This document shows positions 1 to 25,374 of a stretch of DNA of 55,535 nt, piece by piece. This DNA is from Cyanophora paradoxa CCMP329 (Eukaryota; Plantae; Glaucophyta). The position numbers and the translations under genes are program-made. Each line of letters opens with the position of its first letter. The stretch's first letter is position 1. The stretch lies in NCBI GenBank assembly GCA_004431415.1, contig QPMI01000690.1, forward strand, positions 1 to 55,535, in the 5' to 3' direction. A model generated the notes under the pieces. It saw nothing but the letters and a program-made list of their open reading frames with translations. It made no database searches and was not told the DNA's origin.

Positions 1-560
1 CACTGAGTCAGGCTGCCTCGCGTTAAACTCGACGCCATAGAGCAGCAGCTTCCAAGTCGGCGACGCTCGTGTGTGATCCAACGCTACGGTGCGGGGCGCC
101 AAAAGCGGCGGATCCAACGCCACTGCATTGCGTTAAACTGGACGCTACGATTCGGGCGCCGAGCATCGCGGGAGATTCAACGCCACTGCCTCGCATTAAA
201 CTCGGCAATGATCGTGTGAAATCCAACGCTACGGACCGCCAACGGTGCGGGGCGCCAAGAGGGGAGGATTCAACGCCACTGCAATGCGACTGTATTGCGT
301 TAAACTGGACGCCACGGTACGGGCGCCAAGCCCCGCGGGGGATCCAATGCCACTGCTTCGCGTTAAACTTGACGCCATATTGCAGCTAGCGTTTCCCAAT
401 TGCAAGCTCAACCTCGTGTGATCATGAGATCTAACGCTACGGTGCGTGGCGTCAAGCCGCGGGGGATAAAACGCCACTGCATTGCGTTTGACTCGACGCC
501 ATATTCAATGACTGCAGCTTGGCGACGCTCGTACAAGATCCAACGCTACGCGTATACGTA
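1..560 (+). repeat. Degenerate direct-repeat region with iterated RACGCYAC motif (continuation of 48230-48900)
   Basis: Repeated GATCCAACGCCACTGC and GCGTTAAACTGGACGCYAC blocks, all in one orientation. Confidence 0.8.
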
Positions 561-1562
561 CGTATACGCGTGCATGGTAAACGTATGCATAGCATTGCAT
601 ACCCGCCGGCGCCGGGCCGGTATACCGTACGTTGGCCCGGTAGTACCGGTGCGGCCCGGGCGCCGGGCGCCGCGGGCCACGGTAACTAGAACGTTGACGT
701 CGACGTTCACGTTGTCGCAGTTGCAATGGGGTACAGCTGGTCTCGAGGAAAAAAAACAACGACTTGCAGCAGCAGCAGCAGCCGGCGAGCCGGGCACGGA
801 TCGACTCCCATCATCCTCGGCACACCACCACGCATCCAGCTTGCCCAGCAGCGTGTACGCGCACTCGCGAGTAGCCCGGCCGATCGGCCAGTGTGCGATC
901 AACGTCGAGGCGCGCCGCGGTACCGGTTTCTAGCACAGATCAAAGAGATGCCGCACGCGAGCCGCGCCACTGAGCGGTCCGTGTCGTCGGGGGATTGTCC
1001 GAGCGTGCGCGCTCCGAGGTTCGCCCCGCCCGCTCTCGCCTCGGACAGCCGGGACAGGTCGCCGGGCACGGGCGCTCTTCTGACGCTCGGCGGAACCTCG
1101 GGATCACGCAGACTATCTACTGAAGCTCCGCGGGATCCTTGCGCCCTCGTTGACGTGTGCGTCGCCGCCGGCCTCCGGAGCGTTGGTTGACCTGACCTCG
1201 TCGCGCAGCGCTCTCAGGAGCGTGATCGAGCACCGTGCACCAAAGTCCGCGCCTCTTGACACGCCTGGGACGCGCCGCCGCGACGGGTTCGCTCCCCGCC
1301 CGCTCCCGGCCTCGCGCTCTCGATCCCGATCGGGCGCCTCGCGCGACGCGTCGGCGGCAGGCCTCGTCGACGCGTCGCGACCCTTGGCCGCGCGCGTACG
1401 CGACGGAGCGGCGCCCGGCGGCCCCGCAGAGCGCGCATACCGCCTGCAAGAAGTGTCCCCGCGGCCGCACGGACTCTCTTGCATCGCGCGTACTTTCCAC
1501 CTCGCCTCTCGTACGAACCCTGACCGTCTTTGCAGCGGCGTGGCGCGACAGACGACCGCCTC

Positions 1563-2960
1563 CCGTACCCCTGGCTACGGCGGCGGCAGCGAGGGGGGTA
1601 GAGGTGAGCGCGGGAGACTCCCCCCCCCCAAGGGACCTGAGCCGCCCCCTTCTTCCGCCCGCAGATCCCGCTCCTTCTGGGCGGCGGGGCGAGTCTCCAC
1701 CGGCCCCGTACCCTGGCTACGGCGGCGGCGGCGGTGAGGGGTAGAGGTGCGCGCGGGAGACTCGCCGGCCCCCCCCAAGGACCTGAGCCGCCCCCCTTCT
1801 TCCCGCCGCAGATCCCGCTCCTTCTGGGCGGCGGGCGAGTCTCCACCGGCCCCGTACCCCTGGCTACGGCGGCGCGGCGGCGAGGGTAGAGGTGCGCGCG
1901 GGAGACTCGCCGGCCTCCCCCAGGGACCTGAGCCGCGCCCCTTCTTCCCGCCCGCAGATCCCGAGCCTTCTGGGGCGGCGGGGCGAGTCTCACCTCCCCG
2001 TACCCTGGTTACGGCGGCGGCGGCGAGGGGGGTAGAGGTGAGCGCGGGAGACTCGCCGGCCTCCCCCGAGGGACCCTGACCCGCGCCCCGTCTTCCCCGC
2101 CGCAGATCCCGCCCCCTCTAGGGCGGCGGGGCGAGTCTCCACGCGCCCCCGTACCCCTGGCCACGGCGGCGGCGGCGAGGGGGTAGAGGTGCGCGCGGGA
2201 GACTCGCCGGCCCCCCCCAAGGGACCTGAGCCGCCCCCCTTCTTCCCGCCCGCAGATCCGCCCCTCTAGGGGCGGCGGGGCGAGTCTCCACCGCCCCGTA
2301 CCCTGGCTACGGAGGCGGCGGCGGGGGGGGGGGGTAGAGGTGAGCGCGGGCGACTCGCCGCCCCCTCCCCAGGGGACCCTGACTCGCGTCCTTCTTCCCG
2401 CCCGCAGATCCCGCTCCTTCTGGGCGACGGGGCGAGTTTCCACCGGGCCCCGTACCCCTGGCTACGGCGGCGGCGGCGAAGGGGGTAGAGGTGCGCGCGG
2501 GAGACTCGCCGGCCTCCCCCGAGGGGCCTGACCCGCGCCCCGTCTTCCCGCCCGCAGATCCCGCTCCTTCTGGGGCGGCGGGGCGAGTCTCCACCGGCCC
2601 CGTACCCCCTGGCTACGGGCGGCGGCGGCGAGGGGGGTAGAGGTGAGCGTGGGAGACTCGCCGGCCTCCCCCGAGGGACCTGAGCCGCTGCCCCGTCTTC
2701 CCGCCCGCAGATCCCGAGCCTTCTGGGCGGCGGGGCGAGTCTCCACTGGCCACCGTACCCTGGCTACGGGCGGCGGCGGCAAGGGGGTAGAGGTGAGCGC
2801 GGGAGACTCGCCGGCCTCCCCCGAGGGACCTGACCGCGCCCCTTCTTCCGCCGCAGATCCGAGCCTTCTGGGGCGGCGGGCGAGTCTCCACCGACCCCTG
2901 TACCCCTGCCTACGGCGGCGGCGGCGAGGGGGTAGAGGTGAGCGCGGAGACTCGCCCCGC
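1563..2960. repeat. Tandem array, ~150-bp unit, about 9.5 copies; each unit has GGAGACTCGCC in both orientations
   Basis: GTAGAGGTG recurs at 1598, 1741, 1886, 2032, 2183, 2334, 2485, 2637, 2787 and 2932. A second copy lies at about 49910-51320. Confidence 0.95.
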
Positions 2961-3057
2961 CGCCCCCTGGGCCCGCCCGCCCCGCCCCCCGCCCCTCCCC
3001 TCTCGGACTCATCGGCCCTCAATTCGACAGGGCTGCGGGCGGAGCGCGGGGGCGCGG

Positions 3058-3536
3058 CTACGCGCGCTGCGGGACGGGCGGCCAGCTGTGAGAGCCGAGG
3101 GCGAGGGAGAGGGCGTCGTAGGCGAGCCAGAAGCCCTCCTGCGGCTCCGGGGGCGCCGCGAAGAGGGCCCGCGGCGCCATGCGCTCCTGCGCGCGCCGGG
3201 ACGCGTTGCGGGTCGACCGGTGGAGACCGAAGAGGCGGGCGGCGTGGGGGCAGCGGCTGGGCTTCAGCGTCGCGGCCGCGAGCTCCCGTGCGTGCTCGCC
3301 GCCAGAAACTGCCTCAGCTCCTTGGCGCTCAGACGCGACAGCGCCCTGACCATCCCTCCGTCTCCAGGTCGACGTGCAGCACCTGCCAGGGCGCGATCCG
3401 CTCCGCGGCGCGACGGGACGCGGCGCGGGTCGACTTGCGGATGGCGACGATGGCGGCGACGGGCAGCGGTCACGGTCGCGGACGCGTCGTCCCCGGCCGC
3501 GGCGCGGGTCGCGACGCGAGCGGTGGTGCGGGGCAT
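3058..3536 (-). CDS. Hypothetical protein, ~160 aa (frameshifted in this copy)
   Basis: The repeat copy reads through uninterrupted (MPRTTARV...SWPPVPQRA). A TATAAAT box lies ~60 nt upstream on the minus strand (~3590). Confidence 0.6.
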
Positions 3537-3971
3537 CTTGTTTCGATTCGAGAGAGAGAGAGTGGCACGAGGCCGGGCGCGCCCCCCATTTATACCCCCG
3601 AGGGCAGGGCTCGGCCCGAATCCGGGCACCCCCCCCTTTCCCCTCCCCTCCTCTCCTCCCCCCCGTACCCCCCCATCCTGACCTGTTTCCCTCGCCCCCG
3701 CAGGTCCCTTTCGTCTCCGCGCCTGGGGCCCCGCCCCGCCCGCCGCCCACCCCTCCACTCCCCCTCCCCACCCTTCTCGCCCAGGTACCCCTCCTCGCCC
3801 CCTCCCCCCGCCTGGAGACTCGCCGCGCCCCCCGCAAACGTCCCCGCCCTCACCCCCCCCCCCCCACGCAGGCCGAGGCCGCGGTGGTACACGGATACGT
3901 TGCCGCTGCAGGAGCGGGGGTACCCGCGCGGCTACCCGGGCGCCCCGGTCCGCGCGCCCCGCCCTCTGCCC

Positions 3972-4613
3972 CTATCGACCGACGAGCTGAGCGTCCGGGC
4001 GCAGCGCCGATCGGGAGGGCGTCTCGGCGGACCGCGTGCACGGAAAGGAGAGGGAGGCGGGCGGCGGGGCCCCGAAGGACATCCAGTCGACGCTGGCGAA
4101 TCGCCGCCGGAACGGTTCCGGCATGAAGCCCAGCGTCCCCTCGGCCTCGGCGGCGAGCCGCGCGGCGTACCCCGGGTCCTCCCGGGCGAGGCGGGCGTGC
4201 TCGGCGGCGGCAAAGTAGGCGCCTCCGACGGGGCACGGCGCGCGGCACACGGGGCAGCTCGCCGCCCTCCAGCGGACCATGCAGCCGTAGCACATCACGT
4301 GACCGCACGCCTCGGAGACGGGCCGCGTCACCGGCTCGAGGCAGACGGGGCACTCGTCGGTCCAGCGGAGCGGCGACGGCGGCCCGGCGGCGCGGTTCTG
4401 GAAGCAGCGCCAGGCGATGCAGCAGGCGAGGCCAAAGTCGATGTGCCGCTCCCGCGCCGCCTCGTCCTCCTCGGGGTCGGCCCCGAGCGGCATCTCGATC
4501 GTCTCGAAGCGGATCCGGCCCTCGGGCGTCGTGCCCACCGCCAGCGCGCAGCGCGAGACCCCCCTCTCCCGATCGTACTCGATGAGCCGGTGCGCGGGTA
4601 CCCCCGCCTGCAT
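3972..4613 (-). CDS. C3HC4 RING-finger protein (putative E3 ligase)
   Basis: CPVC...CGHVMCYGC...CPVC is canonical RING spacing. ATG at 4613 with TAAAAGAGGG ~50 nt upstream. Confidence 0.85.
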   Translation of the reverse strand: MQAGVPAHRLIEYDRERGVSRCALAVGTTPEGRIRFETIEMPLGADPEEDEAARERHIDFGLACCIAWRCFQNRAAGPPSPLRWTDECPVCLEPVTRPVSEACGHVMCYGCMVRWRAASCPVCRAPCPVGGAYFAAAEHARLAREDPGYAARLAAEAEGTLGFMPEPFRRRFASVDWMSFGAPPPASLSFPCTRSAETPSRSALRPDAQLVGR

Positions 4614-4808
4614 TTCTCCCCCGGGCTCAACGCTGACGGGGTACCCCCTCAGGTCGCCCTCTTTTAGGCTCGCCCCGCGGGGGGTACGCCCGAGGCGGCG
4701 CGGCGATTCCGGGCCCCCGTTTCGGCGCAGCCGTCGGAGACGCGATAAAAAGGGGACGGGGCGGGCCTGAATCCGCACACTCTTCGCCGAGCTCTGCACC
4801 CCGCGATC

Positions 4809-7800
4809 ATGCCTCCCGTCGCGTCTCCCCTCGTCGTCGCCGCCGTCGAGTCTCCCGGCGGCGCGTCGCCCCCGAAACGGGAGGCGGCGCCGGCGGGCGT
4901 CGCGCCCGGCCCGGCCCCGCGTCGCGTCTCCACCTCCTCGGCCCCGCCCCCGTCGCAATCGCGAGGATGGGGCGGGGGCGTGGACGCGGCGGGCTCGCGG
5001 GGGCGGAGCCCATGGAGGTCGACGTCGCGCCGGCCGCCGCCGCCGCCGCCGCCGCCCGGGTCCGGCTGGAGGCCCACGCCCTCGTCAAGCCGGCCGTCCC
5101 GGGCCTCCCCGACCCCTTCAACCAGCGCTGGCGCCGCCGCCCCCTCCGCGACCTCGTCGACGCGGCGGCGCGGCGCGCCTTCTGCCAGGCCGCCTCCACC
5201 CTCGCCGTCCGCCGCCCCGACGGCTCCCAGACCGCCTGCGTCTACGCCGGATTCCTCGACTTTGACGCCGCCGGCATCGCGCCCTCGGAGAAGAAGGGCC
5301 TCGCCGCCAGGGCCGCCCCGCTGCGCACCCTCGCCGAGCTCTTCGCCGCCGAGCCGCGCCTCCTGGAGCCGGCCGGGACCGCGTACAGGCTCGCCAAGGC
5401 GTGCGGGGCGTACCCCCCCGCGCCCGGCGAGGCGCCGCTCGAGTGCCTCGTCACCTTCAGCGGCCTCAAGGCTTCCACGTCCTCCTCCGCCACCCCGCCC
5501 TGCTCGTCCGGGCCCCGGGGCGCGCGTCAAGGCGGACGGCCAGGTGGAGCCGGCGGCGGCCGGCGGCGGCCGGGCCTACTCCGTGGACGACCTCCTGGAG
5601 ACGGCGCTCGTACCCTGCTCCGCAGGCTGCCGGGCCTCTCCGAGGAGGACGTGCTCGGCATCGTGGCGGCGATCGACAGGTCCCCGCTCAACCCCAACTG
5701 CGGCCTCCGCCTCGACGAGTACCCCCACCCGCTCACGGGGCGGTACCCCGTCGCCGTCTCGGGCCCCGACCTCGACGCCCTGATCGAGCCCGACGGCGAG
5801 GCGGCGGAGCGGGTCCTCATCGCCGGCGACGGCCCCGCCCCGGAGATCTCGGCCTTTCTCTCCGGCCTCTTCGCCGACCTGGAGCGGCGCGTGGGGACGG
5901 AGGAGGCCGTGGCCGCCCTCCCGGCCCTCCCCGAGGCCCCGAGCGCCCCGCGCGAGGGCGGCGGCGCGAGCAGGAAGCGTCGGCGGGACGGGAGCCCGGC
6001 CCGGGGCGGCGCCGGCAGCGCGCCCGAGGCCCTGCGCCGGGCCCTGGAGCTCGCCCCGCACCATCGCGATCGGCGGGGCGCGCCCCGCAAGGTCCGACTC
6101 GTGGGGCGCTCGGAGGACGGGCGCTACGTCACGTTTCGCGTCAGCCCCGCGGCGGGCAGCGGCGCCCGGTGCCACCTCGGCGTCGAGCACGACTGGCGCG
6201 GGACCCTCTGCTCGGTCTCGCAGCTCCTCCCGGGGGCGAGCATGGTGGCGTTCCGGTGCGGGGGCCAGAACCACTCGGACTGCGCCCGGCGCCCCGTCTT
6301 TGGGCGGCCCGTCTGGGACGGGGCGCGGGCGGACCCGGCCGAGGAGGCGGCGGACGACGCGGCCCTCGTGGCCCTCGGCGAGTGCCTCTCGAGCATCGCG
6401 GACGGGGCGCGCGGCGGCGGCGCCGCCCCGCCCGCCCGCACCCTCCCGTACCCCTTCTCCGTCGTCCCCCGCACCAACGACCGCGTCTACTCTGTCGACG
6501 CGCCCTGCGCCGAGTGCGGCGGGGCGCGCGGGGGCGTGCTCGTCGACGTTCTGGCGCGCGAGGTCAAGGCGTTCCCGTGCGCCGGCTGCAAGGCGGCGAG
6601 CCCCGAGGGGCGCACCCGTCGCCTCGACCTCCTCCCCGAGCTGGGCTCGGAGCTGCGCGCCGCGGAGGACGCCGTGCAGCGCGCCCTCGTCGCGCGGGCG
6701 CTGGAGGCGAACGGGGGCCCCGGCATCGCGCTCTTCGGCGCCGCGGGCCCGAAGGGCTGGCTGGAGGCCCTCCCGCCCCTCGGCGGGCAGGCCGGGGAGC
6801 AGCTCGTCGCGATCATCGAGGTGCTGCGCCAGCGGGTCGTGGCCAAGGACTGGTCCGGCGAGCCGATCCGCCGCGGGCTCGTGCCGGAGGCGGCGCGGAA
6901 GGCGCTGGACGCGCTCCCGCTCCCCGACCTGCGCGAGCCCCTCGGGCGGCCCGCCGGCGGGGGCTTCGACTGGCGTGACATCGTCCACGACGCCAACGAC
7001 CTCGGCGACCCGCGGCGCCGGTGGGTGGACAAGGAGGCGGTCGAGGGGGCGCTCCGCGGGCCGGCCACGCGGCGAGGCATGCTCTTCCTCCGGGCGCAGA
7101 CGGGTACGGGCAAGTCGCAGGCGATCGTCCACCTCCTCGCCGAGATGCGCAAGTCCCCCGCCGCGTACGGCCTGCCCCAGCACTTCAGGATCCTCTACGT
7201 CGTCGCGGGGCGGATCCACGACGAGCTCCTCCTGGCGGACACGCGCTACACGGCGATCTGCGCGGTGCCGTGGACCTCGTACAAGGAGATGACGCCGGGG
7301 CAGCTGGCGCAGGCGAGCGCGCAGCTCATGTCGACCGTCGAGTCGATCCAGCGCCTCGAGGGCGCCTTCCAGGTCGTCGTCGTGGACGAGGGGGCCAAGG
7401 CGCTGGCCACGCTGGCCCTCTCGACGACGCTGGCCAAGGAGGGGCGCCACAGCGCGGCGGTCGCGCGATTCAGAAGCCTGTTCGCCCAGGCGCACCGCCT
7501 CGTCATCGCCGACGCGGACCTCTCCCAGCCCGACGTCGACTTCTACGTCGGCCTCTTCCTCGGGGCCGGCGCGGCGGCGGCGGGGGCGCGGGGGGCCCCG
7601 GAGCCCTTCGTGGTGCAGTACCTGCACCGGCTCCGCGAGCACGCGCGGGCGGCGCTCCTCCTCCCCTGGATGTACGCCCCGCTCCTCGTCGCGGCGCACC
7701 TCCTGGCCGGCAAGCGCGTCGTCCTCTCCGCCGACGACCGCCGCGCCCTCTTCGCCACCCTCGCCCTCCTCCACGCCCACCCCGCCCTCCGCGCGCGGGT

Positions 7801-10412
7801 CGAGGCCGGCCGCCTGAGCTCGCTCTTCATCTACGCCGACGCGCCCGACGCGGAGAAGGAGAAGCTCAAGGAGAAGGCGCTCGTCGGGGCGCTCGACCTC
7901 TTCGCCTACAACTCGGCCGTACCCCAGGGCAGCGACTTTAACGAGGGCGGCTTCGACGTCTGCATCGTGGCGATGGGCGGGCGGACGTACGACGTGAACG
8001 GGGCGGGGCAGGGCATGGCGCGCGTGCGCTCTGTCGCGGAGCCGGACGTCTTCGTGTGCGCGGGGCGCGAGCCGCGGGAGGAGGCCGCCCTGGGGCCCCT
8101 GGGGGCGACGGTCGGCGGCGTCGAGGCCGTCTACGAGCGGCGCCTCGAGGAGGAGCGCGAGATGCGGGGGCGGGTCGAGGGCGACCGCGCCCGGCTCCCC
8201 CGGGCCGACCTCGCCTTCCTCCGCATGCAGGCGGCCCGCCTCGTCGTCCTGAACTGGAGCCGGCAGCGCACCGTCCAGGCCCTCGACGCCAAGTTCGGGA
8301 AGATGGGGTACGCGCGCGGCCTGGAGCTCGTCGAGAAGGCCGAGCCGCTCCCCAAGTCCGTCGCCTCGCTCCTGAACGGCCTCGCCGCGCGCGTGCGCTC
8401 GGCGGCGATCTACGCCCCCGTGGCCGCCGCCGCCACCCTCGGGGAGGAGGACCCCCGGACGGGCGCCATCGTGGAGAGCATGCTGGCCGGGAGGGCGCCG
8501 GCGGCGCTGGGTCGGTGGCCCGTGACCGAGGCGGAGAGGCTCGCGTGCCGGAAGCGCTTCGTGGCCGGCGCCCTCCGCATCGACCCCGCCGACGTCAGCC
8601 TCGCGGAGGTCGAGGCGCACGCCAAGGAGACGCCCGCCTCCCTCCGCCCCCTGATCCGCGCCTTTGGCGCCGCCGCCGGCCCCTTCCTCGCCGACCGCGA
8701 CGGGCGGGGGGCGGTCTACGGGAGGCACGGGGGGTACGGGCTCCTGGCGGGGCGCGTGGACAAGCAGCACACGCGGCGGAGCGCCCTCGCCCTCCTCGCC
8801 CTGGCGGCGGCCCCGGGCCCCCGGCGGGGCCCCGCGGCCCGGCCGCCCGGCGCCCTCGTCGTCGAGAAGCTCTCGCCCCTCGGGCTCCTCGACTCGTTCG
8901 CGCCGGACGCCTGGCCCGCGGCGGACCTCGCTCGCCTCGCGGCGGCGGTGGAGCGGGACCGGCTCTTCGAGCACGCGACCCGGCGGGACTTTGTGGTCGG
9001 GGCGGGCCTGCTCCAGCAGGCCGACCGGGCCGACGCGGCCGCGTGCAGGGCGTACCGCGCGCGCGCCCAGGAGCTCTTCGATCTGGCCAAGGAACCGACG
9101 CTGGAGGTGGCCGTGGGGAAGCACTTTCTCCGACTCCTGAAGCGGGCGGCCATCTGGGCGGGCGTACCCCTCAAGCCGGCCGTCTTCGCGGGCCCCCCGA
9201 AGCGCCGACAGGTCGGCGGGCGGCGGGTGACCCAGAGGGCGGCGTCGAGGGCGGGATTCGTGGTGGACTACCTCGCCCTCGCCTTTGTTACCTGCGCCCA
9301 CGCCAAGACCGAGTACGCGTCCCGGCGGCTCTTCGAGGCGTCGAACCCGGAGCCCGAGGCGGCGGCGGCGGCGGCGGAGGAGGAGGAGGAGGGGGAGGAG
9401 GAGGGCGCGGCTCCGGGCGGGGACGGCGAGGAGGGGGAGGGGGCGGGCGAGGGCGGCCGGCGGGGGGGGAGGAGACGGACGTGGCGGACGGCCTCGATCG
9501 GGCGAGCGAGGGCGGGGACGAGACGGCGGAGGCCGACCGGGAGGCCATCGAGGCGCTCCTCGCGGGGGCCGCCCCGGGGGAGCGCGCCCCCCTCCCGCCC
9601 GTCACGTACCCGGAGCCGGAGGAGGGCGCGGGCGCGCGCCGGTGGACCCGCCACGGGGCCCGCCTCTTCTTCTCCGCGATGAACCTGACGGCCGTCGCCA
9701 TGAGCGCGATCGTCGAGCTGGGGCGGCCGCTGCCGCAGCGCAGGCCCCTGCGCGAGCGCGCCGAGCTCCACCCCTCTGTCTGGTACGGGCCGGCGGCGCG
9801 GGCGCTGGCGGCGGAGCCCAACGAGCTGCTCGGGCGGCTCCTGGGGATGGGGGGGGGCGAGGAGGCGATCCGCGCGGCGGCGGCGCGCGTGCACGCGGCC
9901 CTGCTGGACTCGTGCGACGCGGAGGAGAGGGCGGGCGCCGAGTCCGAGGCGGAGCCGCGGGTGACGCCGGCGGCGCTCGAGGAGCTCCTCCGCGCCCTCT
10001 GCGAGCGGGCCGCCGAGGCGGAGGCGCGCTCCGCGGCGGATCCCGGCGTCGACGAGGAGGACGCGCGCTGGTTCGTGGGGCGCCTGGCCGAGGCCTGGCG
10101 CGCCGGCGCGGGGACGCGCTCCGACCCCGCCAGTTTCACCAAGAAGGAGCTCAACGGGATCTTCAAGCCCAAGGACCCGACGAGCGGGGAGGAGCTCCCC
10201 GTGACGCTCCGGGGGCTCCCGAACAAGGTCGCCGTCATCAAGCCCGGCAACAGCAGCGGGTCCGGCCTCGGCCTCGTCGCCGACTGGCTCGAGAGGCGCG
10301 GGGCGCCGTCCCTCCGCATCCAGCTCGAGTGGCGCGCCCGCCCAAGGGGAAGGAGCTCACGGGGATCGCCGTCCCCCGCGCCCTCTTTGCTCACTTCGGA
10401 TTCGACAGCTAG
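4809..10412 (+). CDS. AEP primase/PrimPol + UL52-like Zn finger + UL9 (origin-binding protein)-type SF2 helicase fusion; several apparent sequencing frameshifts
   Basis: AEP motifs: FLDFD, FSGLK/GFHV (1-nt slip at ~5470), IDRSPLNPNCGLRL. Zn finger: CHLGVEH...FRC...HSDC. Helicase motifs: AQTGTGKS, VVVDE, VIADAD, AYNSAVPQGSDF, QGMARVR. The C-terminus continues through frames 8056..10728 and 9285..10412 to FGFDS*. The start may be 4809 (ATAAAAAGGGGAC at 4745) or 5012. Confidence 0.85.
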
Positions 10413-10780
10413 GCACCCCCTCCTGTACGCGAGCACCTCTGAACGCGTGCGGCTCCCTCTTCCCTCGGTGTTCGGGGTGGGGGTACGGGGGCGGGAGGGA
10501 GGGGAGGGGAGGGGGAGGGGCCCGGGCGCCCCGCCCCGTTCCGCCCTCGCAGGGCTCGCAGCCGGCCGTTCGCGCTCCAAAGGTGCGGCGTACCCCGCCC
10601 CCCCCCCCCCCCCCCCCCCCCCGCTTACCCCTCGTGACAGGGCCCGTTCGAACGAGGCCTTCGCATGCGCCCTCTCATCTGAGCGATTCCCTTTTCGGGT
10701 ATTTTTCTCGCGCCCCGCCGCACTATAAAAAAGATCGCGCCGCCCCGAAACCTCACTCTCAAGTTTCGCAGCTTCGCAAC

Positions 10781-11478
10781 ATGAGCTCGGCCCTTTCCGT
10801 CGCGTCCTCTCTCGACATGATCGACCCGGCGCTTTTCGGTCGCGACGGCGCGCTCTTCTCCTGCGGCGCACCGGCCCCGGGCGGCCTGGACTCGGCCCGG
10901 CTCCCTCCCGTCGCGTCGATCCTCGCCGCCGCGCCCGACGCGGAGAAGGAGAAGCTCATGGAGAAGGAGCTCGTCGGGGCGCTCGACCTCTTCGCCTACA
11001 ACTCGGCCGTACCCCAGGGCGGCGACTTTAATGAGGGCGGCTTCGACGTCTGCGTCGTGGCGATGGGCGGGCGGACGTACGACGTGAACGCGGAAAAGGA
11101 GAAGCCCAAGGAAAAGGAGCTCGTCGGGGCGCTCGACCTCTTCGCCTACAACTCGGCCGTACCCCAGGGCGGCGACTTTAACGAGGGCGGCTTCGACGTC
11201 TGCGTCGTGGCGATGGGCGGGCGGACGTACGACGTGAACGCGGAAAAGGAGAAGCCCAAGGAGAAGGAGCTCGTCGGGGCGCTCGACCTCTTCGCCTACA
11301 ACTCGGACGTACCCCAGGGCGGCGACTTTAACGAGGCTGCTTCGACTTCTGCATCGTGGCGATGGGCGGGCGGACGTACGACGTGAACGCGGCGGGGCAG
11401 AGCATGGCGCGCGTGCGCCGTTTCGCGGAGCCGGCCGTCCCGCGCGCCCTCTTTGCTCGCTTCGGATTCGACAGCTAG
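10781..11478 (+). CDS. Chimeric ORF copy 1 (Zn-knuckle gene N-terminus + 3x helicase motif V-VI segment + helicase C-terminal tail); 1-nt frameshift near 11336
   Basis: Near-identical to 11854..12552, with TATAAAAA at ~10724. Confidence 0.5.
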
Positions 11479-11853
11479 GCACCCCCCTCCTGTACGCGAG
11501 CACCTCTGAACGCGTGCGGCTCCTTCTTCCGTCGGTGTTCGGGGGGGGGGGACGGGGGGGGGGGGGGGGGAGGGGGGAGGGGGAGGGGCCCGGGCGCCCC
11601 GCCCCGTTCCGCCCTCGCAGGGCTCGCAGCCGGCCGTTCGCGCTCCAAAGGTGCGGCGTACCCCGCCCTCCCCTCCCCCCTCCCCCCGCCTCCGCTTACC
11701 CCCTCGGGACAGGGCCCGTTCGAACGAGGCCTTCGCATGCGCCCTCTCATCTGAGCGATTCCCTTTTCGGGTATTTTTCTCGCGCCCCGCCGCACTATAA
11801 AAAAGATCGCGCCGCCCCCGAAACCTCACTCTCAAGTTTCGCAGCTTCGCAAC

Positions 11854-12552
11854 ATGAGCTCGGCCCTTTCCGTCGCGTCCTCTCTCGACATGATCGACCC
11901 GGCGCTTTTCGGTCGCGACGGCGCGCTCTTCTCCTGCGGCGCGCCGGCCCCGGGCGGCCTGGACTCGGCCCGGCTCCCTCCCGTCGCGTCGATCCTCGCC
12001 GCCGCGCCCGACGCGGAGAAGGAGAAGCTCATGGAAAAGGAGCTCGTCGGGGCGCTCGACCTCTTCGCCTACAACTCGGCCGTACCCCAGGGCGGCGACT
12101 TTAATGAGGGCGGCTTCGACGTCTGCGTCGTGGCGATGGGCGGGCGGACGTACGACGTGAACGCGGAAAAGGAGAAGCCCAAGGAAAAGGAGCTCGTCGG
12201 GGCGCTCGACCTCTTCGCCTACAACTCGGCCGTACCCCAGGGCGGCGACTTTAACGAGGGCGGCTTCGACGTCTGCGTCGTGGCGATGGGCGGGCGGACG
12301 TACGACGTGAACGCGGAAAAGGAGAAGCCCAAGGAGAAGGAGCTCGTCGGGGCGCTCGACCTCTTCGCCTACAACTCGGACGTACCCCAGGGCGGCGACT
12401 TTAACGAGGGCTGCTTCGACTTCTGCATCGTGGCGATGGGCGGGCGGACGTACGACGTGAACGCGGCGGGGCAGAGCATGGCGCGCGTGCGCCGTTTCGC
12501 GGAGCCGGCCGTCCCGCGCGCCCTCTTTGCTCGCTTCGGATTCGACAGCTAG
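11854..12552 (+). CDS. Chimeric ORF copy 2, 232 aa, intact
   Basis: Open frame MSSALSV...(40 aa)x3...QSMARVRRFAEPAVPRALFARFGFDS with a TATA box upstream. Confidence 0.55.
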   Translation: MSSALSVASSLDMIDPALFGRDGALFSCGAPAPGGLDSARLPPVASILAAAPDAEKEKLMEKELVGALDLFAYNSAVPQGGDFNEGGFDVCVVAMGGRTYDVNAEKEKPKEKELVGALDLFAYNSAVPQGGDFNEGGFDVCVVAMGGRTYDVNAEKEKPKEKELVGALDLFAYNSDVPQGGDFNEGCFDFCIVAMGGRTYDVNAAGQSMARVRRFAEPAVPRALFARFGFDS

Positions 12553-12926
12553 GCACCCCCCTCCTGTACGCGAGCACCTCTGAACGCGTGCGGCTCCTTC
12601 TTCCGTCGGTGTTCGGGGGTGGGGGGTACGGGGGGCGGGAGGGGGGAGGGGGGGGGGGGGGGCCCGGGCGCCCCGCCCCGTTCCGCCCTCGCAGGGCTCG
12701 CAGCCGGCCGTTCGCGCTCCAAAGGTGCGGCGTACCCCGCCCTCCCCTCCCCCCTCCCCCCGCCTCCGCTTACCCCCTCGTGACAGGGCCCGTTCGAACG
12801 AGGCCTTCGCATGCGCCCTCTCATCTGAGCGATTCCCTTTTCGGGTATTTTTCTCGCGCCCCGCCGCACTATAAAAAGATCGCGCCGCCCCCGAAACCTC
12901 ACTCTCAAGTTTCGCAGCTTCGCAAC

Positions 12927-13533
12927 ATGAGCTCGGCCCTTTCCGTCGCGTCCTCTCTCGACATGATCGACCCGGCGCTTTTCGGTCGCGACGGCGCGCT
13001 CTTCTCCTGCGGCGCGCCGGCCCGGGCGGCCTGGACTCGGCCCGGCTCCCTCCCGTCGCGTCGATCCTCGCGCCGCCGCTCGTCGCGACCCCTGGCTCCC
13101 TCCCGCCGCCTTTGAAGCCTGCAAGGCGCCCCTCCCGTGGCCCCGCGTGGACGCGGACGCGACGGCGCCGGCGCCCGCGGGCCCTCTTCAGGATCCCCTC
13201 GCGCCCCTGCCGCCGAGCCCCGCGGCCGGCACCCGAGCCCGCCGCGCCCGCAGGGCCCCCTCTGCGCTTCCCGTCGCCGTGCCGGCCCCGGCGCGGCACG
13301 TCGACCTGGGCCCGTGCGCCCCGCTCAGGCGCCGTCGCGTCGTCCGCTGTTCCGTGTGCAGGCTCACGGTACGCGCTCGCGAGGCCCGGGCGGGCGGCGC
13401 GGCGCGGCGGGCGTCGCGCGGCGATCTGACCTTTTTCCTGCGCGCGCAGGGCCACAACAAGAAGACCCACGACCGGTTTGTCCTGGGCATCGTGCCCGTG
13501 TGGAAGAAGCGGCGTCAGTGGCAGCGCAAGCGG

Positions 13534-13572
<39 letters not shown>

Positions 13573-13821
13573 CCCGCGAGCTCCGCCGCCCCCGCCTCGA
13601 CGTCGACGGGCGGCAGGGTGATGCACTGCTGCGAGTGCGGCATGGAGGTGAGTCCACCGGAGGGCGCGTCGTGGGGGGCGACAGGGGGAGGTGGGGGGGG
13701 GGAGGGAAAGGGGGTACGGGCCCGATCTGACCCTCGTTCTGCGCAGGGCCGCAACTCCAGGACGCACCACGGCCCGCGGATGCACTGGCGCAAGAAGCGG
13801 GAGAGCGACTACGAATACTGA
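12927..13821 (+). CDS. Spliced protein with two Zn-knuckle-like motifs (introns 13369-13449 and 13648-13746; indels in the 5' part)
   Basis: Removing GTACGC..CTGAC..GCAG and GTGAGT..CTGAC..GCAG gives CSVCRLTGHNKKTH and CECGMEGRNSRTH. TATAAAA at ~12870. Confidence 0.65.
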
Positions 13822-13894
13822 GCGCGCCGGCGTTTGCATAAAGGGGACCCGCGCCGCCTCTCCCGCAGCGGCGGCGCCCAGGGCCTGAGCGGGG

Positions 13895-14200
13895 ATGACG
13901 CTCCGCGTGGAGGGAAGGCTGCGGATCGGGCCCAGCGCGGAGGGCCCGGCGCGCGTCGAGGTGGACCTCGACGCGGACGAGACCCTGGTGGCGACGGCGG
14001 GCGAGGAGACGCTCTGGGTCGTCGCCCGCGACCGCGTGCGCGCCCTCGACGCCCGCTGCTGCGCCTGGTCCGTCGAGTACAAGTTCTCCTCGCCCCTGAG
14101 CCGCGTGGAGGGCGCGCCCGACGGCTCCCTCGTCGTCTTCTTCGAGGGGGGCGGCCTGCGGTACCTCCCCAAGCCGACCGTGGACAGGTGGGGCCTCTGA
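13895..14200 (+). CDS. Hypothetical beta-rich protein, 101 aa
   Basis: Globular composition, GC3-rich codons, and ATAAAGGGGACCC 57 nt upstream. Confidence 0.65.
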   Translation: MTLRVEGRLRIGPSAEGPARVEVDLDADETLVATAGEETLWVVARDRVRALDARCCAWSVEYKFSSPLSRVEGAPDGSLVVFFEGGGLRYLPKPTVDRWGL

Positions 14201-16122
14201 ATCCCGCTGCCCGTGCGCCGCGCGCTCGGACGAACAAAGTCCTCTAGATCGAGCCTGGCCCCTCCCCCTCCCCGTCCCCGCCGGCACATGTTGGTCGAGT
14301 TTTGCTCGTTCAAGTTGTATTGGATCGCGAGGTCGCTCATATGCATTTTCAATGCAGATGCGCGGGAGGGCGCCTGGGGGGATAGGGGGGGGGGGGGGGG
14401 GGGTCGGCGGCGGGGTACACGCGGATGCTGCGAGGCGAGAGGCCTCGGCCTAGGGCGGGCCCCTCGGGGTGAGCGGGCGAGTCTCCCGTGTGGAAATTCC
14501 GGAGGGTCTCTCGATCGGGGCGCGACCGGGGTCCTGGAGAGGGGCGGGCGACCGCCGTCTCCCGCCGCGCCGCCGCCCCGTGCGGCGAGCCGCGCCGCCG
14601 CCAGCCCCGCCCGCCGAACCGCGCCGCCGCCGGCCGAGCCCCAGCCCGCCCGTCGAGCCGCGCCGACGCCCGCCACGTCCCCGCCCCGCCCGTCGAGCCG
14701 AGCTGCAGTCAGCCAAGCCCCCGCCCCGTGCAGCGATGCCCATAGATGGGCCGCTCACCAGGCGTTCGGTGTACATGCATGGCTCAACCACCTGCGCACG
14801 CACGGGTCAACCGATGAGGCAGCCGGGCACAGGGCACCCAAAAGCGCACGAAATAAGGCCCTTGAACCCTGTGTCCCTCGGCAGCGTAAAGTCTATGCCG
14901 GCTGCGGCGCACGCGACGGCTGCGGCGCCGGCGCACGCGACGGCTGCGGTCGATCGTCGCCGGCGCGGAGCTGGACAGGCGGGAGATCTCGCGCAGCGTG
15001 CAGCTGCTCACGAGCTTCCAGGGAGCAGTATGCCCACGCTCCGAGCTTCAACGTGCCTCGATTCGAGCGCCCCGAGAGCACACGCGTACGCCGCCCCAGG
15101 AGATCCAGAGGCCCGCGTAGCTGGCCGGAGTACTGCGCATGCATCGCTCAGCACCCCGGCCCCATGTCGCTGAGCACGTACAGCCACTCCTGCTCACGCA
15201 CATTTCCTTCGGCATCTGAAGGGACTTGCCACCCAGACGCAGCGGCCGCCGGGAGCGGGCTGCAGGCAGAGCTGGAGCTAGCTATCGACAACGCTTGACG
15301 AAAGCTCAGCGCTAGCCCCGTGCTCACGGCCGCCGCGAGAACTGCAATGTGTATCCCCCATCCTCTCACCCTCCCCCCCCCCAGAAAAAAACAAAAAACT
15401 CCTGCACTATTGATATCTAGATCTACCGGTATTTGAAATTGGCACCCTGGCCCCGCAGGCCGCCCCCCCACCCCCCCACCCCACCCCTAACATCCAAAGG
15501 CTATAGCAGCCGGACTCGAGCTCGTGCAAACGACGTTGGGCTGATCGCGAGGCCGGCCGGCCGCGATTATGAAATTGCGCCCCAAATTAAATTGCGCGCG
15601 CGACTGCGGGCCCTCAAGAGGACGAGGCGATATATATGTGTGCATTACAGCTTCATTTGGATAGCCACTGCGCCTGGCCTGTCGGTCGCGATCTCTCTCA
15701 TGAGAATCACGTGCACTGTCATGCAGCGAGACGGCGCAATGATTCATTATTCAAGCATGCGCATGCGTGTATGCATGCTCGTAAAAATGCGCAATATGAA
15801 TCGATCTTTTTTTAAACATGAAGCTCGCGACTCGAATTCCGGATCCGTCGACACGTGCACGGATGTGCGCGTTGAGTGCGCGCGACGTGAACATTTCCAC
15901 GGCCCGGCCTGGTTCGGCGAATTTTGAAACTCTCAGGCTCTACGTCGTTCAAGACAATTTAGAACGGAGAACTGACGGATATTAATTCGAGATGCGGATA
16001 TATATGTATATATATCGATCGAAATTAAATTCGACAACGTGCGAATTAAACGATATCGGTATACGTATCGATTTCGATGGATGGCCGTCGACTGCGCGCT
16101 AAATAGCTGGATATAGAGTGCA

Positions 16123-16938
16123 TTACGACTCTGAGCCGGCGGCGGCCTCTGTCTCGACCTGAATCGAGCACGCGCATGCGCACGTGCCTTCGATCTTGCG
16201 GACATCGGGCCCGTTCCCGCAGGAGGGGGCCGAAAATTCCGCGCCTAGCGCTGTCATCACCTTTAATTTCTTTGCGAGGCCCCCGTTTCGTGCACGATCC
16301 TCGAGGAGCAGTTTAAACGCCTTGGCGACGGTTTCGTTCGGAAACCCGTGTGCCACCGCCCGAATCTTGATCGGTCCGCGGGCCATCTCGAAGAGGCCGG
16401 AGCCGCGCAGCTCGGCAAACTTGCGCTTGAGGTTGGACGAGCAGCCGACAAAGGCGGGGAGCTGCCTGGCGCCGCCCATGACGAACACGACGGGCTGCTT
16501 GGGTCCGAATTTGTCCGAGAGCTCCACCGGGGCGGGCTTTGCGTTTGGGTCCCGAACGTGAACGGCCCTGTTCGGCGCCGGCGCCGAGGACGCTGCGTCG
16601 CGACCCGCGGCCGCGTCGACGTCGCCGGCCGCCTCGCCCTCGCGATCCTGCCCTCTGCCCGCGGGCGCGCGCCTGCGCCCGAATCGCGACGCAGGTCGAC
16701 GTCGGGGCCGGGATCCGGAGGCGGCTGCGTTCGAATCCGGCGCCTCCGAGCGCGAATCGCGCTCGCGATCGCTGTCGGCCGCAGCGCCCTGCACCGAAAT
16801 CGATAGCGATGGGTTCGGCGCGGGAGATTTCGGAGGTGACGACGGCGCTTCCCGACATCGATCGGGATCCTGATCGATATCGTGATCGTGGTCGGCGGCG
16901 GGGCCCGATCGCTTCGAATTCGGGCTCGACGTCGACAT
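16123..16938 (-). CDS. Degenerate GIY-YIG (SLX1-like) domain protein, likely inactive
   Basis: PVVFVM...AFVGCSSNLKRKFAEL...GPIKIRAVAHGFPNETVAKAFK aligns with the paralog at 40.4-40.8 kb. ATAAATAG lies upstream. Confidence 0.7.
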   Translation of the reverse strand: MSTSSPNSKRSGPAADHDHDIDQDPDRCREAPSSPPKSPAPNPSLSISVQGAAADSDRERDSRSEAPDSNAAASGSRPRRRPASRFGRRRAPAGRGQDREGEAAGDVDAAAGRDAASSAPAPNRAVHVRDPNAKPAPVELSDKFGPKQPVVFVMGGARQLPAFVGCSSNLKRKFAELRGSGLFEMARGPIKIRAVAHGFPNETVAKAFKLLLEDRARNGGLAKKLKVMTALGAEFSAPSCGNGPDVRKIEGTCACACSIQVETEAAAGSES

Positions 16939-17394
16939 CCCCTCTAGCGCCTCGAGCTTCGGGGCATGGTGCTTCTATTTATCCGCGCCCAGGCCCTCAC
17001 ACTCTTGAGGGCGGCTTTGTTTTCGGCCGACGTGCGCTGCGGGCGGCCCGAGGTTTACGAGTATGTATATGTGCGTATGCGGGGAGAATTCGAATCGAAC
17101 TGCAGCGCTAGCTGGGATCCGGATCGGGCCTGCGTCGACGTTCCGTCGACCTAGGCCTCCCGCCCGCCGTTGCCCGCGTCTCCCGCGCGGACTGCTTTAT
17201 AAGCGAGCGCATGCACGGCCCGGGCCCGGGGGGACCGGGCGGGGGCGGGGGTGCACGTGCCGAGGCGGCGGGCGGGGTGCGTGACCCGCGAGTCGCCCTC
17301 CCCTCTGGACGTTGGCCGTACCCCTCCTCCTCCCCTCCCCGGGCCCCCCTCCGGAGACTCGCCGCCACCCCCCTCTGGAGGGAGCGGCGCTCGC

Positions 17395-18765
17395 GCGTCG
17401 TCCGCAAGGCGAACGAGTGAAAGGGAGGGAGGGTGCCGCGCCGCAAGAGGCAGGGGGGTAGAAGAGTTTCCGGGGCGCCATGCGCCCCCGCGCCGATGGA
17501 CCAGGCCTAGGGGGCGCCGAAGCTCGTTCTGGGGCGTCGGGCGAGTCTCCAGGGGGAGGGGGGGGGCCGCCGGGGGTACGGCTCGGAGCTTTCGCGCCGC
17601 TCTCTCTCGGGGGCGGCGGCGAGTTTCGAAGGGGGGGGGGGGGAGCTTGAGGGGGGGTAGCTGGGGGTACGAGCGAGATTCTAGCGCCGCCCTCTGTCGG
17701 GGGCGGCGGCGAGTCTCCCGGGGGGGTGAAACGAGGGGGTACGTGGGGGTACGGTCGAGATTCGAGAGTCGTTTGCTTCGAGGGGGTGGCGGCGAGTCTC
17801 CAGGGGGGGAGGGGGAGGTAGGTGGGGGTACGGTCAGAGATTCAGCGCCACCCTCTTTCGGGGGCGGCGGCGAGTCTCCAGGGGGGGAGGGGGAGATAGC
17901 TCGGGGTACGGTCAGAGATTCAGCGCCACCCTCTTTCGGGGCGGCGGCGAGTCTCCAGGGGGGTGGGACGAGGGGCACGTGGGGGTACGGGAGAAATTAT
18001 AGAGCTGTTCGCTTCGAGGGGGTGGAGGCGAGTCTCCAGGGGGGGAGGGGGAGGTAGGTGGGGGTACGGTCAGAGATTTAGGGCGGCGCGGCTCTGGATC
18101 TCTCTCGGGGGCGGCGGCGAGTCTCCGGGGGGGTGGGACGAAGGGTACGTGGGGGTATGGCCGAGATTATGGAGCAGTTCGCTTTGAGGGGGTGGCGGTG
18201 AGTCTCCAGAAGGTAGGAGGAGGCCACCGAAAACTCGCCGCGCCCCCCTCAGGGACCCGTTGCACGGGCGTGAGAAGCCAAGGGTGAGCGAGCTCGAGGA
18301 GAAGGCCGGTCCCGTACCCCGTCTCCCAACCTGGACCCCGCTGGAAACTCGCCACGCCCCCCTCAGGGGCCGGCTGCACGAGCGTGAGAAGCCGAGGGGG
18401 AGCGAGGGAAAGGCCGGTCCCGTACCGGGACCCCATCTCCCAAACCTGCCCCCCGCCGCTGGAAACGCGCCGCGCGCCCCTCAGGGGCCGGCTGCACGAG
18501 CGTGAGAAACCGAGGGGGAGCGAGGGAAAGGTCGGTCCCGTACCCCGTCTCCCAAACCTGCCTCTGCCGCTGGAAACTCGCCACGCGCCCCTCGGGGGCC
18601 GGCTGCACGGGCATGAGAAACTTTAAGCCGAGGGCGAGCGAGGGAAGGGCGGACCCGTACCCCGTCTACAAACCCGCCCCTGCCGCTGGAAACTCGCCGC
18701 GCGCCCCTCAGGGGCCCGCTGCACGGGCGCGAGAATTCGGAGCCGAGGGCGAGCGAGGAGAAGAC
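17395..18765. repeat. Left arm of large imperfect inverted repeat (~80-bp array x~9, then ~115-bp array x~4.5)
   Basis: Reverse complement of 35165-38060, including the non-array stretch CCGCGCCGCAAGAGGCAGGGGGTAG...GGGGCGCCATGCGCCCC. Confidence 0.85.
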
Positions 18766-19303
18766 CACCACCCCCTCCCCCCTGGAGACTCGCCGGCTCC
18801 CCCTCTGAGAGAGCGGTGCTCGAGATTTGATCGTACCCTCACCAACCCCGCCCCCCGCCCCTGGGAGACTCGCCGGCTCCCCCTCGGAGAGAGCGGCACT
18901 CGCGCGTCGTCCGTACCCCGCCGAATGGAAGATGAAACCCCGCCTCCCGCCCCCCTGGAGACTCGCCGCCGACCCCCTCTGAGAGAGCGGCGCTCGGGAT
19001 ACGCAATATATATAAGGAATGCGAGAGGTCTAGATCGCAGAGGGACCGGAGCGTGCGGCCAGAGCACCTTCAGGTGATCGCGGTCAGGGCTCAGATTTCG
19101 AAACGATATAAAGGAACGCGCGCGCGCGCGCCTCTATCTCTGCGCACACGGATCCGGGCCGGGCGGCACTCACGACCACGATCCATAGATTGCGATCGAT
19201 CGAAACTGGGTTCGCCCCCAAGATTCGTGATCGCGATCGGCGGCATAAATTTCAGACCGCTTTCACAGAGCCCTCAGTCCCCACACCGCGACCGAAAACG
19301 ATC

Positions 19304-20227
19304 ATGAGCAGTTGCGTCCACCCTTACGTCGCGTCCGGGGCCGAGGGCGACGTGTGCACGTCCTGCGGCATGTGCCTCGACGCGTACGGGTCGTACGCGA
19401 CGCCCCTGGGCCTCGTCTGCGACGAGCAGGGCGGCGCCGGCGTCGCGTCCTCGCACGATCGATATCTGCAACTGGGGCTGGATCTGCTACGCGATATTCC
19501 AGAGCCGGCGCCGCGCACGTGCACGTGGCAGCCTTCCAAGTCTAGTTCTGCGCGCGCAATCCCGAGCTCGAGCGCGCACGGTACCCACGCGAATATGAAT
19601 CGCACGGAGCTGGATCAGACTGTGAGGGAGACGGCAGAGCGCATGCTCCTCCCGGAGATTGTCTGGCGCGAGGCCCTGGAAACGCTCCGCGAGAAGCGCG
19701 CCGTGATCTCGGGGAGGCGGTACACATCCCTCGCCCTCGCGGCCCTCTATCTGGCCGTCCAACAGCTCGATATCCCTCGTGGGATACACGATTTCGAGCA
19801 CGCGGCCCCTCCCGAGGCGCGCCACGAGGTCCGAAAGTACGTTCGCGTCCTCTTGGAGGCGACGCCGGCGCCGGCGCCGGCCGCGGGGCCCCCCGCGGGC
19901 GATCGGCGCGAGGGCCGTCGCCTTCACACGTACGACTTGGGCGTGTCCCTCGTGGAAAGCGTCGGAAAGAATATTGGAATCGACGGTTCGATCATCTCGG
20001 CCGCCCAGAAGCGCTACAGAGAGTACCTGGAGGCGGGACGAGCTCGTTCCAGGACCCCGAAGATCCTAGCGATAGGGGCGCTCGCGCTCGCGGCCAAGCT
20101 CTCCGGACGCGCTTCCTGGTCCACGCGAAAAATCGCGATTCGAGCCGGGGCCTCTCCGACCGCCGCGCGCGCTGCGGTCAGGGAGATGAGGGCACGGCTC
20201 GGGATAGACCTAGATCTAGACCCGTAA
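19304..20227 (+). CDS. TFIIB-like transcription initiation factor, 307 aa, intronless
   Basis: N-terminal Zn ribbon CVH...CTSCG, followed by two cyclin-fold repeats (GRRYTSLALAALYLA..IPR and SRTPKILAIGALALA..KIAIRAGAS). Confidence 0.85.
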   Translation: MSSCVHPYVASGAEGDVCTSCGMCLDAYGSYATPLGLVCDEQGGAGVASSHDRYLQLGLDLLRDIPEPAPRTCTWQPSKSSSARAIPSSSAHGTHANMNRTELDQTVRETAERMLLPEIVWREALETLREKRAVISGRRYTSLALAALYLAVQQLDIPRGIHDFEHAAPPEARHEVRKYVRVLLEATPAPAPAAGPPAGDRREGRRLHTYDLGVSLVESVGKNIGIDGSIISAAQKRYREYLEAGRARSRTPKILAIGALALAAKLSGRASWSTRKIAIRAGASPTAARAAVREMRARLGIDLDLDP

Positions 20228-24410: not shown

Positions 24411-24624
24411 GGGCGAGGGGCCGGGCGCGGCCTCGAGACCTAGGCCTACACAGACATCCGTTTTATATATAGCTAGCTTTTTTATTATACATTGGGAGCG
24501 CGCGATTCTACGAACTTCCGAACCGCATGCGCTCGAGCACGAGTCTCCCAGAGGGAGAAGAAGGGGGTACAGGCCAAGAGGGAGGGGGAAGTATCAGGGG
24601 GGGGGAATTCGTGGCGGTGGGGAG

Positions 24625-25290: not shown

Positions 25291-25374
25291 CGCGCGCAGG
25301 CGCGGGAGATCTTTGCGGGCCGTGACACCTAGAACTCACCGTCTCGCTCATACTATGATATCCCGCGTCTCGGC

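Follow-up and report, generated by a model that had tools for sequence, protein, structure and literature searches.

Layout of the Locus

The subject of this work is a 55,535-nucleotide stretch of DNA (hereafter, the window) from the glaucophyte alga Cyanophora paradoxa CCMP329, namely positions 1 to 55,535 of contig QPMI01000690.1 in the assembly GCA_004431415.1, and above all one gene in it (4809..10412, forward strand), which codes for a predicted primase fused to a UL9-like helicase and is a candidate replication initiator. The end of the window repeats its start: the first 7,175 bases recur there with 97.5% identity and 139 gaps. Such a repeat delimits a unit of 48.3 kb (1..48341, no strand assigned) and points either to a circle or to a tandem copy whose ends are noisy. 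The GC content of the unit is ~72%, and non-coding or repeat DNA makes up about half of it. Its gene content comprises the primase-helicase, a tyrosine recombinase, TFIIB, a histone H3 variant, RING and GIY-YIG proteins and a probable AAA+ ATPase.

An Intact Primase-Helicase Gene

In the assembly, this single intronless open reading frame (ORF) of ~1,870 aa is disturbed by nine single-base drops. One frame remains open for 1,681 codons from position 4637 without a stop; by a codon-phase scan, the coding frame departs from this main frame before ~4870, at ~5500 and after ~9460. A first-pass annotation, made from the sequence alone, had already reported a 1-nt slip masking an SGxK-GFH motif in both window copies, and the same G is indeed missing from SGLK-GFH in the two. 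For the frame check, short-read contigs of four public runs were aligned to positions 4300-10380, the short repeats 5020-5068 and 9342-9412 being left out. Single bases are restored at 5469, 5512, 5612 and 10340 in all four runs, the base missing from SGLK-GFH being among those present in every run. An inserted base is found at 4907 in three of the four, and at 4960, 4973 and 4996 in two, those with listed contigs spanning these sites. The contigs over 9413-10380 (two runs) exceed the window by two bases; therefore, a ninth slip must lie between 9413 and ~9460.

With nine bases added, the gene reads through 1,871 codons from the ATG at 4809 to the TAG at 10412, exactly the span given in the first-pass annotation. 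A separate, near-identical gene copy, P0001, from a EukProt record named Cyanophora paradoxa, has SGLKGFH in frame and reads through the 9460 slip, and the C-terminal residues of the corrected protein agree with the ends of its relatives. No short-read contig skips an intron in the covered spans of the gene. The frame slips are thus single-base assembly errors, and the gene is intact. That it might instead be a decayed pseudogene, the outcome to be expected had accurate reads confirmed the slips as real, seems to us exceedingly improbable. Around nine slips in the window, one of them common to both copies, and the likewise broken records P0003 and P0004 could be taken in this sense, but at eight of the sites the short-read contigs put the frame back, and they imply the ninth slip as well, and a main frame free of stops over its 1,681 codons speaks against decay as well.

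Predicted Primase Domain and Zinc Fingers

The archaeo-eukaryotic primase (AEP) domain occupies 5060..5900 (forward strand), as judged from motifs, relatives and a model of P0001. The DxD motif (FLDFD) lies at 5252-5266, where it had been reported. The SGLK/GFH motif follows at 5456-5480, with FSGLK at 5456-5470 and GFH one base out of frame, and a motif-III-like region, IDRSP..GLRLD, at 5672-5716. The latter had been described as hD..LRL; the region is there, but its actual spacing is D-x8-G-L-R, and relatives keep it as D..P..PNxGxRxD. The DxD, SGxKGFH and D..P..PNxGxRxD motifs are all kept in three subfamilies at 34-37% identity (P0001, P0002 and P0005).

The AEP model was built on P0001 with three sequences and has a mean pLDDT of 48, better over the core. 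When compared with 48,161 chains, its 11 best matches, over model residues 3-280, were without exception primases or polymerases of the AEP type, with Z 4.7-6.8, an rmsd of 4.6-5.4 A and 141-190 residues aligned. They comprise primases of human, yeast, Tetrahymena and archaeal origin as well as LigD, CAPP, Prim-PolC and HP0184. The structural evidence for the predicted AEP fold, one of the checks proposed in the first-pass annotation, is this agreement among matches, each single Z being middling. Chains of the herpes simplex virus (HSV) helicase-primase head the Foldseek list of the model at E 0.3. In the atlas, the N-terminus of P0005 adjoins the AEP_C962R and Herpes_UL52 clusters of nucleocytoviruses with a score of 0.90, which is borderline. 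When the gene and its relatives from the host were scanned directly with Pfam, no primase or UL9 match emerged, the best direct hit being LigD_Prim-Pol at E 0.01 for P0005, and a PDB sequence search with the AEP alignment was negative.

Downstream, a zinc finger of the form C-x5-H-x22-C-x7-C spans 6170..6283 (forward strand), in a low-confidence region of the model. We assign it to the UL52/PrimPol pattern on what we take to be the reference spacing. The finger of P0005 reads C-x5-H-x23-C-x4-C, and its first Cys is absent in P0002. Pfam returned no match for the finger and the model does not resolve it, while its atlas clusters contain Herpes_UL52 in 19-66% of members at 0.89-0.90. A second zinc ribbon, CxxC...CxxC, lies at 6506..6589 (forward strand; pairs at 6506-6517 and 6578-6589). 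Both pairs are present in P0001, P0005, P0011 and P0020, one in P0002 and none in P0008 and P0013. Both fingers had been seen in the first-pass annotation at these places; the AEP model resolves neither. Overall, a predicted AEP primase with a UL52/PrimPol-pattern zinc finger is a supported assignment for the N-terminal region.

The UL9-like Helicase

The superfamily 2 (SF2) helicase, delineated by profiles of relatives and by motifs, covers 7025..8065 on the forward strand. Its motifs I (7094-7117), II (VVDEG, 7379-7393), III (DADL, 7505-7522), V (7907-7939) and VI (QGMARVR, 8009-8029) are invariant or nearly so across relatives, and profile comparison agrees with the UL9 style ascribed to them earlier. 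A homologue search covering 1.84 billion representatives gave 18 matches: 12 proteins named C. paradoxa, the window's own copy, four environmental or database proteins and one repetitive false match (P0018, E 2e-4), which was dropped as spurious. A second search with the alignment returned three proteins, all already known. The four outside relatives match Herpes_ori_bp at E 4e-17 to 1e-25, and their profile matches HSV UL9 structures at 1e-20. The family profile, in turn, matches these four environmental relatives and one cluster mate at 98.8% (E 1e-16, 301 columns). The CyRepA1 profile matches the window protein at E 3e-10, with 39.4 bits against a curated cut-off of 200; a PDB sequence search with the helicase was negative. 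Homology to Herpes_ori_bp is therefore supported through a transitive link, by way of the outside relatives.

These nearest outside relatives (P0014, P0015, P0017 and P0019) are UL9-like proteins of 890-970 aa that begin at the helicase, and three of them lie on contigs of 11, 29 and 40 kb. At 10368..13087 (forward strand), there are duplicates of ~1.07 kb which carry a TATAAAAA box, an ATG and the last codons of the large gene, and in which helicase motifs IV-VI are present in three tandem copies of 150 bp. Duplicates reusing the 3' end of the gene are also present in P0001 and P0003. They are real, since short-read depth is raised over their helicase piece, and are possibly recombination products or decoy fragments.

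Overall, we hold with high confidence that the gene joins a primase, zinc fingers and a UL9-like helicase, the observation from which this work started. The single polypeptide fusing AEP and UL9-type helicase is seen directly in the intact ORF of 1,871 codons. The first-pass annotation went further and proposed a single-polypeptide initiator/primase; of this, the one chain with both domains stands, and activity as initiator and as primase is predicted.

A Conserved C-Terminal Domain

After the helicase comes a long region of ~650 residues (8066..10040, forward strand), partly conserved in the family and containing an acidic low-complexity linker near 9350-9500. The protein ends in a domain at 10045..10412 (forward strand), which we consider a candidate origin-binding domain and which is predicted to be a winged helix. 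By inspection, the host proteins, taken from EukProt records named Cyanophora paradoxa, form seven diverged subfamilies whose identity to the window helicase is 25-39%, and a related C-terminal domain of ~110 residues ends all seven. AEP motifs are intact in three subfamilies, lost in three and outside the record in one. Since the three subfamilies that lost them yet keep both helicase and tail, the last two seem to be the essential parts. The proteins concerned (P0011, P0013 and P0020) retain helicase motifs and tail without DxD and SGxKGFH, a loss of primase that echoes the one in mriyaviruses and UL9.

A model of the tail, made with the sequence of the relative P0006 (identity to the window 32%, 112 aa), has a pLDDT of 81. 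Among Foldseek's top 1,000, the best match was TcpK (Z 7.2, rmsd 3.5, 95 residues aligned), followed by the C-terminus of SaPIBov1 Rep (Z 6.0, rmsd 4.6, 92 aligned). Next in the ranking come mostly winged-helix regulators. Foldseek found nothing for the tail at E<=0.001, and the atlas search with it gave no usable match. An initial guess, a KilA-N/APSES domain, is absent among the matches listed for the tail model. Thus, the P0006-based model predicts a winged helix like those of TcpK and SaPI Rep, in contrast to the SAP domain used by UL9; a shared fold, however, does not show function.

Arrays of the GGARACTCGCC Motif

Across the window, 101 copies of the motif GGARACTCGCC were counted, where shuffles predict 0.29; this control ignores tandem duplication, which inflates the count. 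Within the 48.3-kb unit, its 83 copies fall into four repeat loci, with none in 25.8 kb of coding spans. The first locus (1555..2960, repeated at 49899-51317) is a 151-bp tandem array, each unit of which bears one forward and one reverse site. At locus A (17500..19000), arrays of ~80 and 118 bp face away from a centre at 18197-18239. At locus B (35160..37950), which is the inverted homologue of locus A at ~80% identity, arrays of 111 and 80 bp switch direction between 37060 and 37092. Locus C (24650..26700) has reverse sites and then a 43-bp forward array, with the switch at 25274/25382. No strand is assigned to any of these loci. Sites therefore face away from a short centre at three loci and alternate in the 151-bp array. 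An iteron-type initiator binds iterated sites beside an AT-rich melting region; here, iterated and oppositely oriented sites are present, and the centres are not AT-rich.

The informative point on the motif is that it is kept across array families with diverged flanks. Arrays with periods of 43, ~80, 111, 118 and 151 bp all retain GGARACTCGCC, whereas their flanks are mostly 23-58% identical, rising to 68-83% between the homologous A and B arrays.

Several further features accompany the arrays. GTACCC is found within 50 bases upstream of 48 of the 83 motifs, mostly at 22-29, as compared with 6% of random positions, and the strand opposite the motif arrays is G-rich with quadruplex-type runs. 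In a search for related motif loci in viruses, six viral contigs matched the paired motif with two copies each and carried no related protein, and we regard these matches as chance. A second, unrelated degenerate repeat, AACGCCACTGC...CGTTAAAC, occupies 1-600 and 48340-48900 and, with the AT-rich patch adjoining it at 48000-48200, is an alternative candidate origin.

The motif might also serve something other than replication. In this scenario, the helicase-primase works without sequence-specific origins, and GGARACTCGCC is a binding site for the recombinase, for some other protein of the element or for a host factor, in recombination, chromatin or segregation. Loci A and B flank the recombinase-bearing segment as inverted homologues with 13-bp inverted arms at their centres, the centres of the motif loci are not AT-rich, and the element's H3 variant has some centromeric-type features, all of which would fit. 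Typical recombinase core sites are 6-8 bp long. The 17-bp spacer between the arms exceeds such a core, and the protein has a conserved predicted DNA-binding tail of its own, whose best matches bind origin repeats. We therefore regard origin-independent action as unlikely, while giving it real weight.

Other Genes of the Element

The intron-bearing recombinase gene (29248..33600, forward strand) encodes an N-terminal domain of unknown kind, a Ulp1-like protease, a tyrosine recombinase and a C-terminal domain. The recombinase residues R-K-(K)xxR-H-Y, read by eye, are in place, and the match to XerC (E 1.6e-6) is below the cut-off. Nine homologues, all of them EukProt records (687-2000 aa, one a fragment), are 57-93% identical. 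Three of the nine lie on contigs that also have a homologue of the helicase, at distances of 8, 13 and 16 gene numbers. On one of these sister contigs, a recombinase of 93% identity goes with a helicase of 26% identity.

A TFIIB homologue lies at 19304..20227 on the forward strand (Pfam TFIIB E 2.7e-6; NCBIfam PRK00423 E 8e-7). On the reverse strand, at 27330..28265, about nine small exons encode a divergent histone H3 variant recognised by PDB sequence matches. Its tail looks canonical, but its fold has a long loop 1 and LRW, which may be centromeric-type features. The loop-1/LRW exon finds centromeric Cnp1 as its best PDB match (E 0.011; an H3.3 chain has E 1.1), and the last exon matches ordinary H3 at E 5e-5. 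A RING finger gene (4068-4626, reverse strand, Pfam E 7e-8) diverges from the initiator gene. A GIY-YIG nuclease is encoded at 40.4 kb (40425-40829, reverse strand, E 5e-11), and a possible second one, recognised by eye, at 16.4 kb (16126-16974, reverse strand). One cysteine-rich and two beta-rich proteins lie on the forward strand at 21014-23300, 38330-39910 and 13900-14200. The intron-bearing AAA+ ATPase-like gene at 41300-45700 (reverse strand) was identified from motifs by eye and gave no database match; its product has a long N-terminus, and its coding sequence contains a 39-bp repeat.

For capsid and polymerase genes, Pfam was run on 84 frames, comprising 79 kept by a composition filter from 163 unassigned ones and five added. 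No capsid, packaging ATPase, viral late transcription factor (VLTF), HUH or polymerase family was found in them, though divergent proteins and noisy frames can escape such a scan. Likewise, no jelly-roll capsid or packaging ATPase of polinton-like viruses (PLVs) appeared in this Pfam scan, which included no PLV capsid profiles. The remark in the first-pass annotation that no separate DNA polymerase is visible agrees with this result, which is weak evidence of absence.

These data bear on two viral explanations. According to the first, the 48.3-kb unit derives from an endogenous giant virus (nucleocytovirus, mriyavirus-like or mirusvirus), as a segment or a remnant that no longer replicates itself, with capsid genes elsewhere or lost, and the gene is an accessory primase-helicase of the R8/F1055L type. 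A set of genes for TFIIB, RING, GIY-YIG and histone proteins is in keeping with a large DNA virus, and the AEP is nearest to nucleocytovirus clusters. C. paradoxa is reported to contain giant endogenous viral elements (PMC12344493), and SmDNAV, which has no polymerase, possesses both the fusion and a TFIIB (10.64898/2026.08.29.747986). The 84 frames, however, yielded none of the capsid, packaging ATPase, VLTF or polymerase families and leave little unassigned coding room; ORF and recombinase are intact, the latter being linked to a helicase on three other contigs, and several genes have GT-AG introns. We consider an endogenous giant virus unlikely, on a par with the origin-independent scenario above.

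The second explanation, a polinton-like virus with a tyrosine recombinase, an AEP-SF2 replicase and very divergent capsid genes that were missed, appears distinctly improbable. Recombinases do accompany AEP replicases in such viruses (10.64898/2026.10.13.758929), and primase-SF2 fusions in cryptophyte PLVs, together with a mention of a C. paradoxa PLV, are on record (PMC12220804). Still, 48 kb exceeds the quoted 14-40 kb, about half of the unit is non-coding or repeat DNA, its genes are intron-rich, and no capsid-sized unassigned ORF is left.

Proposed Role

Taken together, the data lead us to favour, on balance, the reading that the intact fusion protein is the replication initiator of a recombinase-bearing nuclear mobile element of ~48 kb in a glaucophyte alga. 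The initiator role for the element is, in itself, probable. In this scheme, the winged-helix tail would bind the iterated GGARACTCGCC sites facing away from short centres at three loci, the SF2 motor would open the DNA at the tail-bound sites, and the AEP with its zinc finger would lay primers. Host polymerases would extend them, since the element shows no polymerase, and the tyrosine recombinase would excise and reinsert a circular form. Binding of the 11-mer by the tail, which is suggested by the modelled fold, is a tentative step, and we place it a little short of an even chance.

Several points weigh against such a role. The centres between the inverted sites are short and not AT-rich, unlike HSV oriS and SaPI origins, which counts against a classical origin; tandem duplication, ignored by the shuffle control, inflates the motif count; and the recombinase or a host protein could own GGARACTCGCC. 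Built from three sequences and with a mean pLDDT of 48, the AEP model is weak, and Foldseek gave nothing for it at E<=0.001. The tail was modelled on P0006 and not on the window sequence, its Z of 7.2 is within the range regarded as common, and winged helices bind many things. Finally, short-read contig depth over the primase-helicase gene is 167-219 (one run) as compared with ~35-80 for most stray matches. Contig depth is no copy number, and when summed it weakly hints at a few copies, which suggests that this is not a high-copy episome.

It is tempting to go one step further and suppose a family of capsid-less, self-replicating nuclear elements of 50 kb, plasmid-like giant transposons of a glaucophyte, each with an initiator, iteron arrays, a recombinase, TFIIB and an H3 variant. 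TFIIB and the H3 variant would then perhaps transcribe and segregate the circular form, and initiator and recombinase modules would have been swapped between elements, as the contig with the 93% recombinase and the 26% helicase might illustrate. We regard this broader supposition as possible, though rather unlikely.

Comparison with Known Systems

Literature searches, which did not extend to supplements such as host gene lists and PLV tables, gave no published description of this element, and no related loci were found among the viral contigs, metagenome contigs or plasmids searched. The fusion itself is known. As stated in the first-pass annotation, AEP-UL9 fusions of nucleocytoviruses are already in print for mimivirus R8 and for pF1055L of African swine fever virus (ASFV), and they extend to Ostreid herpesvirus 1 (OsHV-1) and some Yaraviridae (10.1101/2024.02.29.582850), and to SmDNAV (10.64898/2026.08.29.747986). 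The window protein shares with R8, pF1055L, OsHV-1 AAS00940, Yaraviridae SF2_hel and the SmDNAV protein an N-terminal AEP with intact motifs and a C-terminal UL9-related SF2 helicase. Mriyaviruses and SmDNAV likewise have no DNA polymerase of their own, and the primase is lost in some viral lineages. By their descriptions, the viral fusions are set apart from the longer window protein (~1,870 aa) with its predicted winged-helix end, as well as from its setting, a nuclear element that bears a recombinase and in whose scanned frames neither a capsid gene nor a HUH gene was found.

HSV-1 UL9 (PF02399; PDB 9hgi, 9hgj, 9zgf, 9vjh) is related in its helicase core, where motifs II, III, V and VI of the UL9 style are shared, although the window protein gives no direct Pfam or PDB match and the link is transitive. 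In both settings inverted short sites lie nearby, but the centres here are not AT-rich. UL9 is described as having no active primase and as binding oriS through a SAP subdomain (PMC13483431), where the last domain of our family models, on P0006, as a winged helix. CyRepA1 (Slr7037, NCBIfam NF042913), required for autonomous plasmid replication (PMC9978351), is likewise a single-chain primase-helicase Rep with a helicase match at E 3e-10; the score, however, is ~39 bits against the cut-off of 200, the window protein is twice as long, and its host is a eukaryote.

The predicted tail fold resembles those of SaPI (staphylococcal pathogenicity island) Rep/PriRep (PDB 8tch) and TcpK (5vfx/5vfy). TcpK binds tandem 9-mers at oriT (PMC6137059), and SaPI Reps bind oppositely disposed iterons via a C-terminal winged helix (10.64898/2026.10.17.759575). 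SaPI PriRep even has the same order of primase, helicase and winged helix, but SaPI helicases are hexameric SF3 or MCM-like rather than SF2, and at 8-12% identity the tails share a fold resemblance only. PLVs also combine a recombinase with a primase-helicase on an integrated protist element (PMC12220804; 10.64898/2026.10.13.758929), while the present unit is larger, intron-bearing and repeat-rich, with no capsid or packaging genes found in the frames scanned.

What is new here, therefore, is the conserved predicted winged-helix tail, the 83-fold 11-bp motif and the recombinase-bearing 48.3-kb setting without a capsid gene found. The first-pass annotation had the domains and the single chain right and missed the tail domain, the motif, the family and the element with its recombinase.

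The part played by primase-helicases of the R8/F1055L type is still an open question, and the portions of the literature covered name no target sequence for them. On this small element of a culturable alga, the enzyme occurs together with candidates for its recognition domain and for its 11-bp site, and the seven diverged tails permit a comparison of protein-to-site covariation. If the element replicates and integrates alone, without capsids, it would be large eukaryotic mobile DNA of a kind not yet described and might provide a base for an algal episomal vector.

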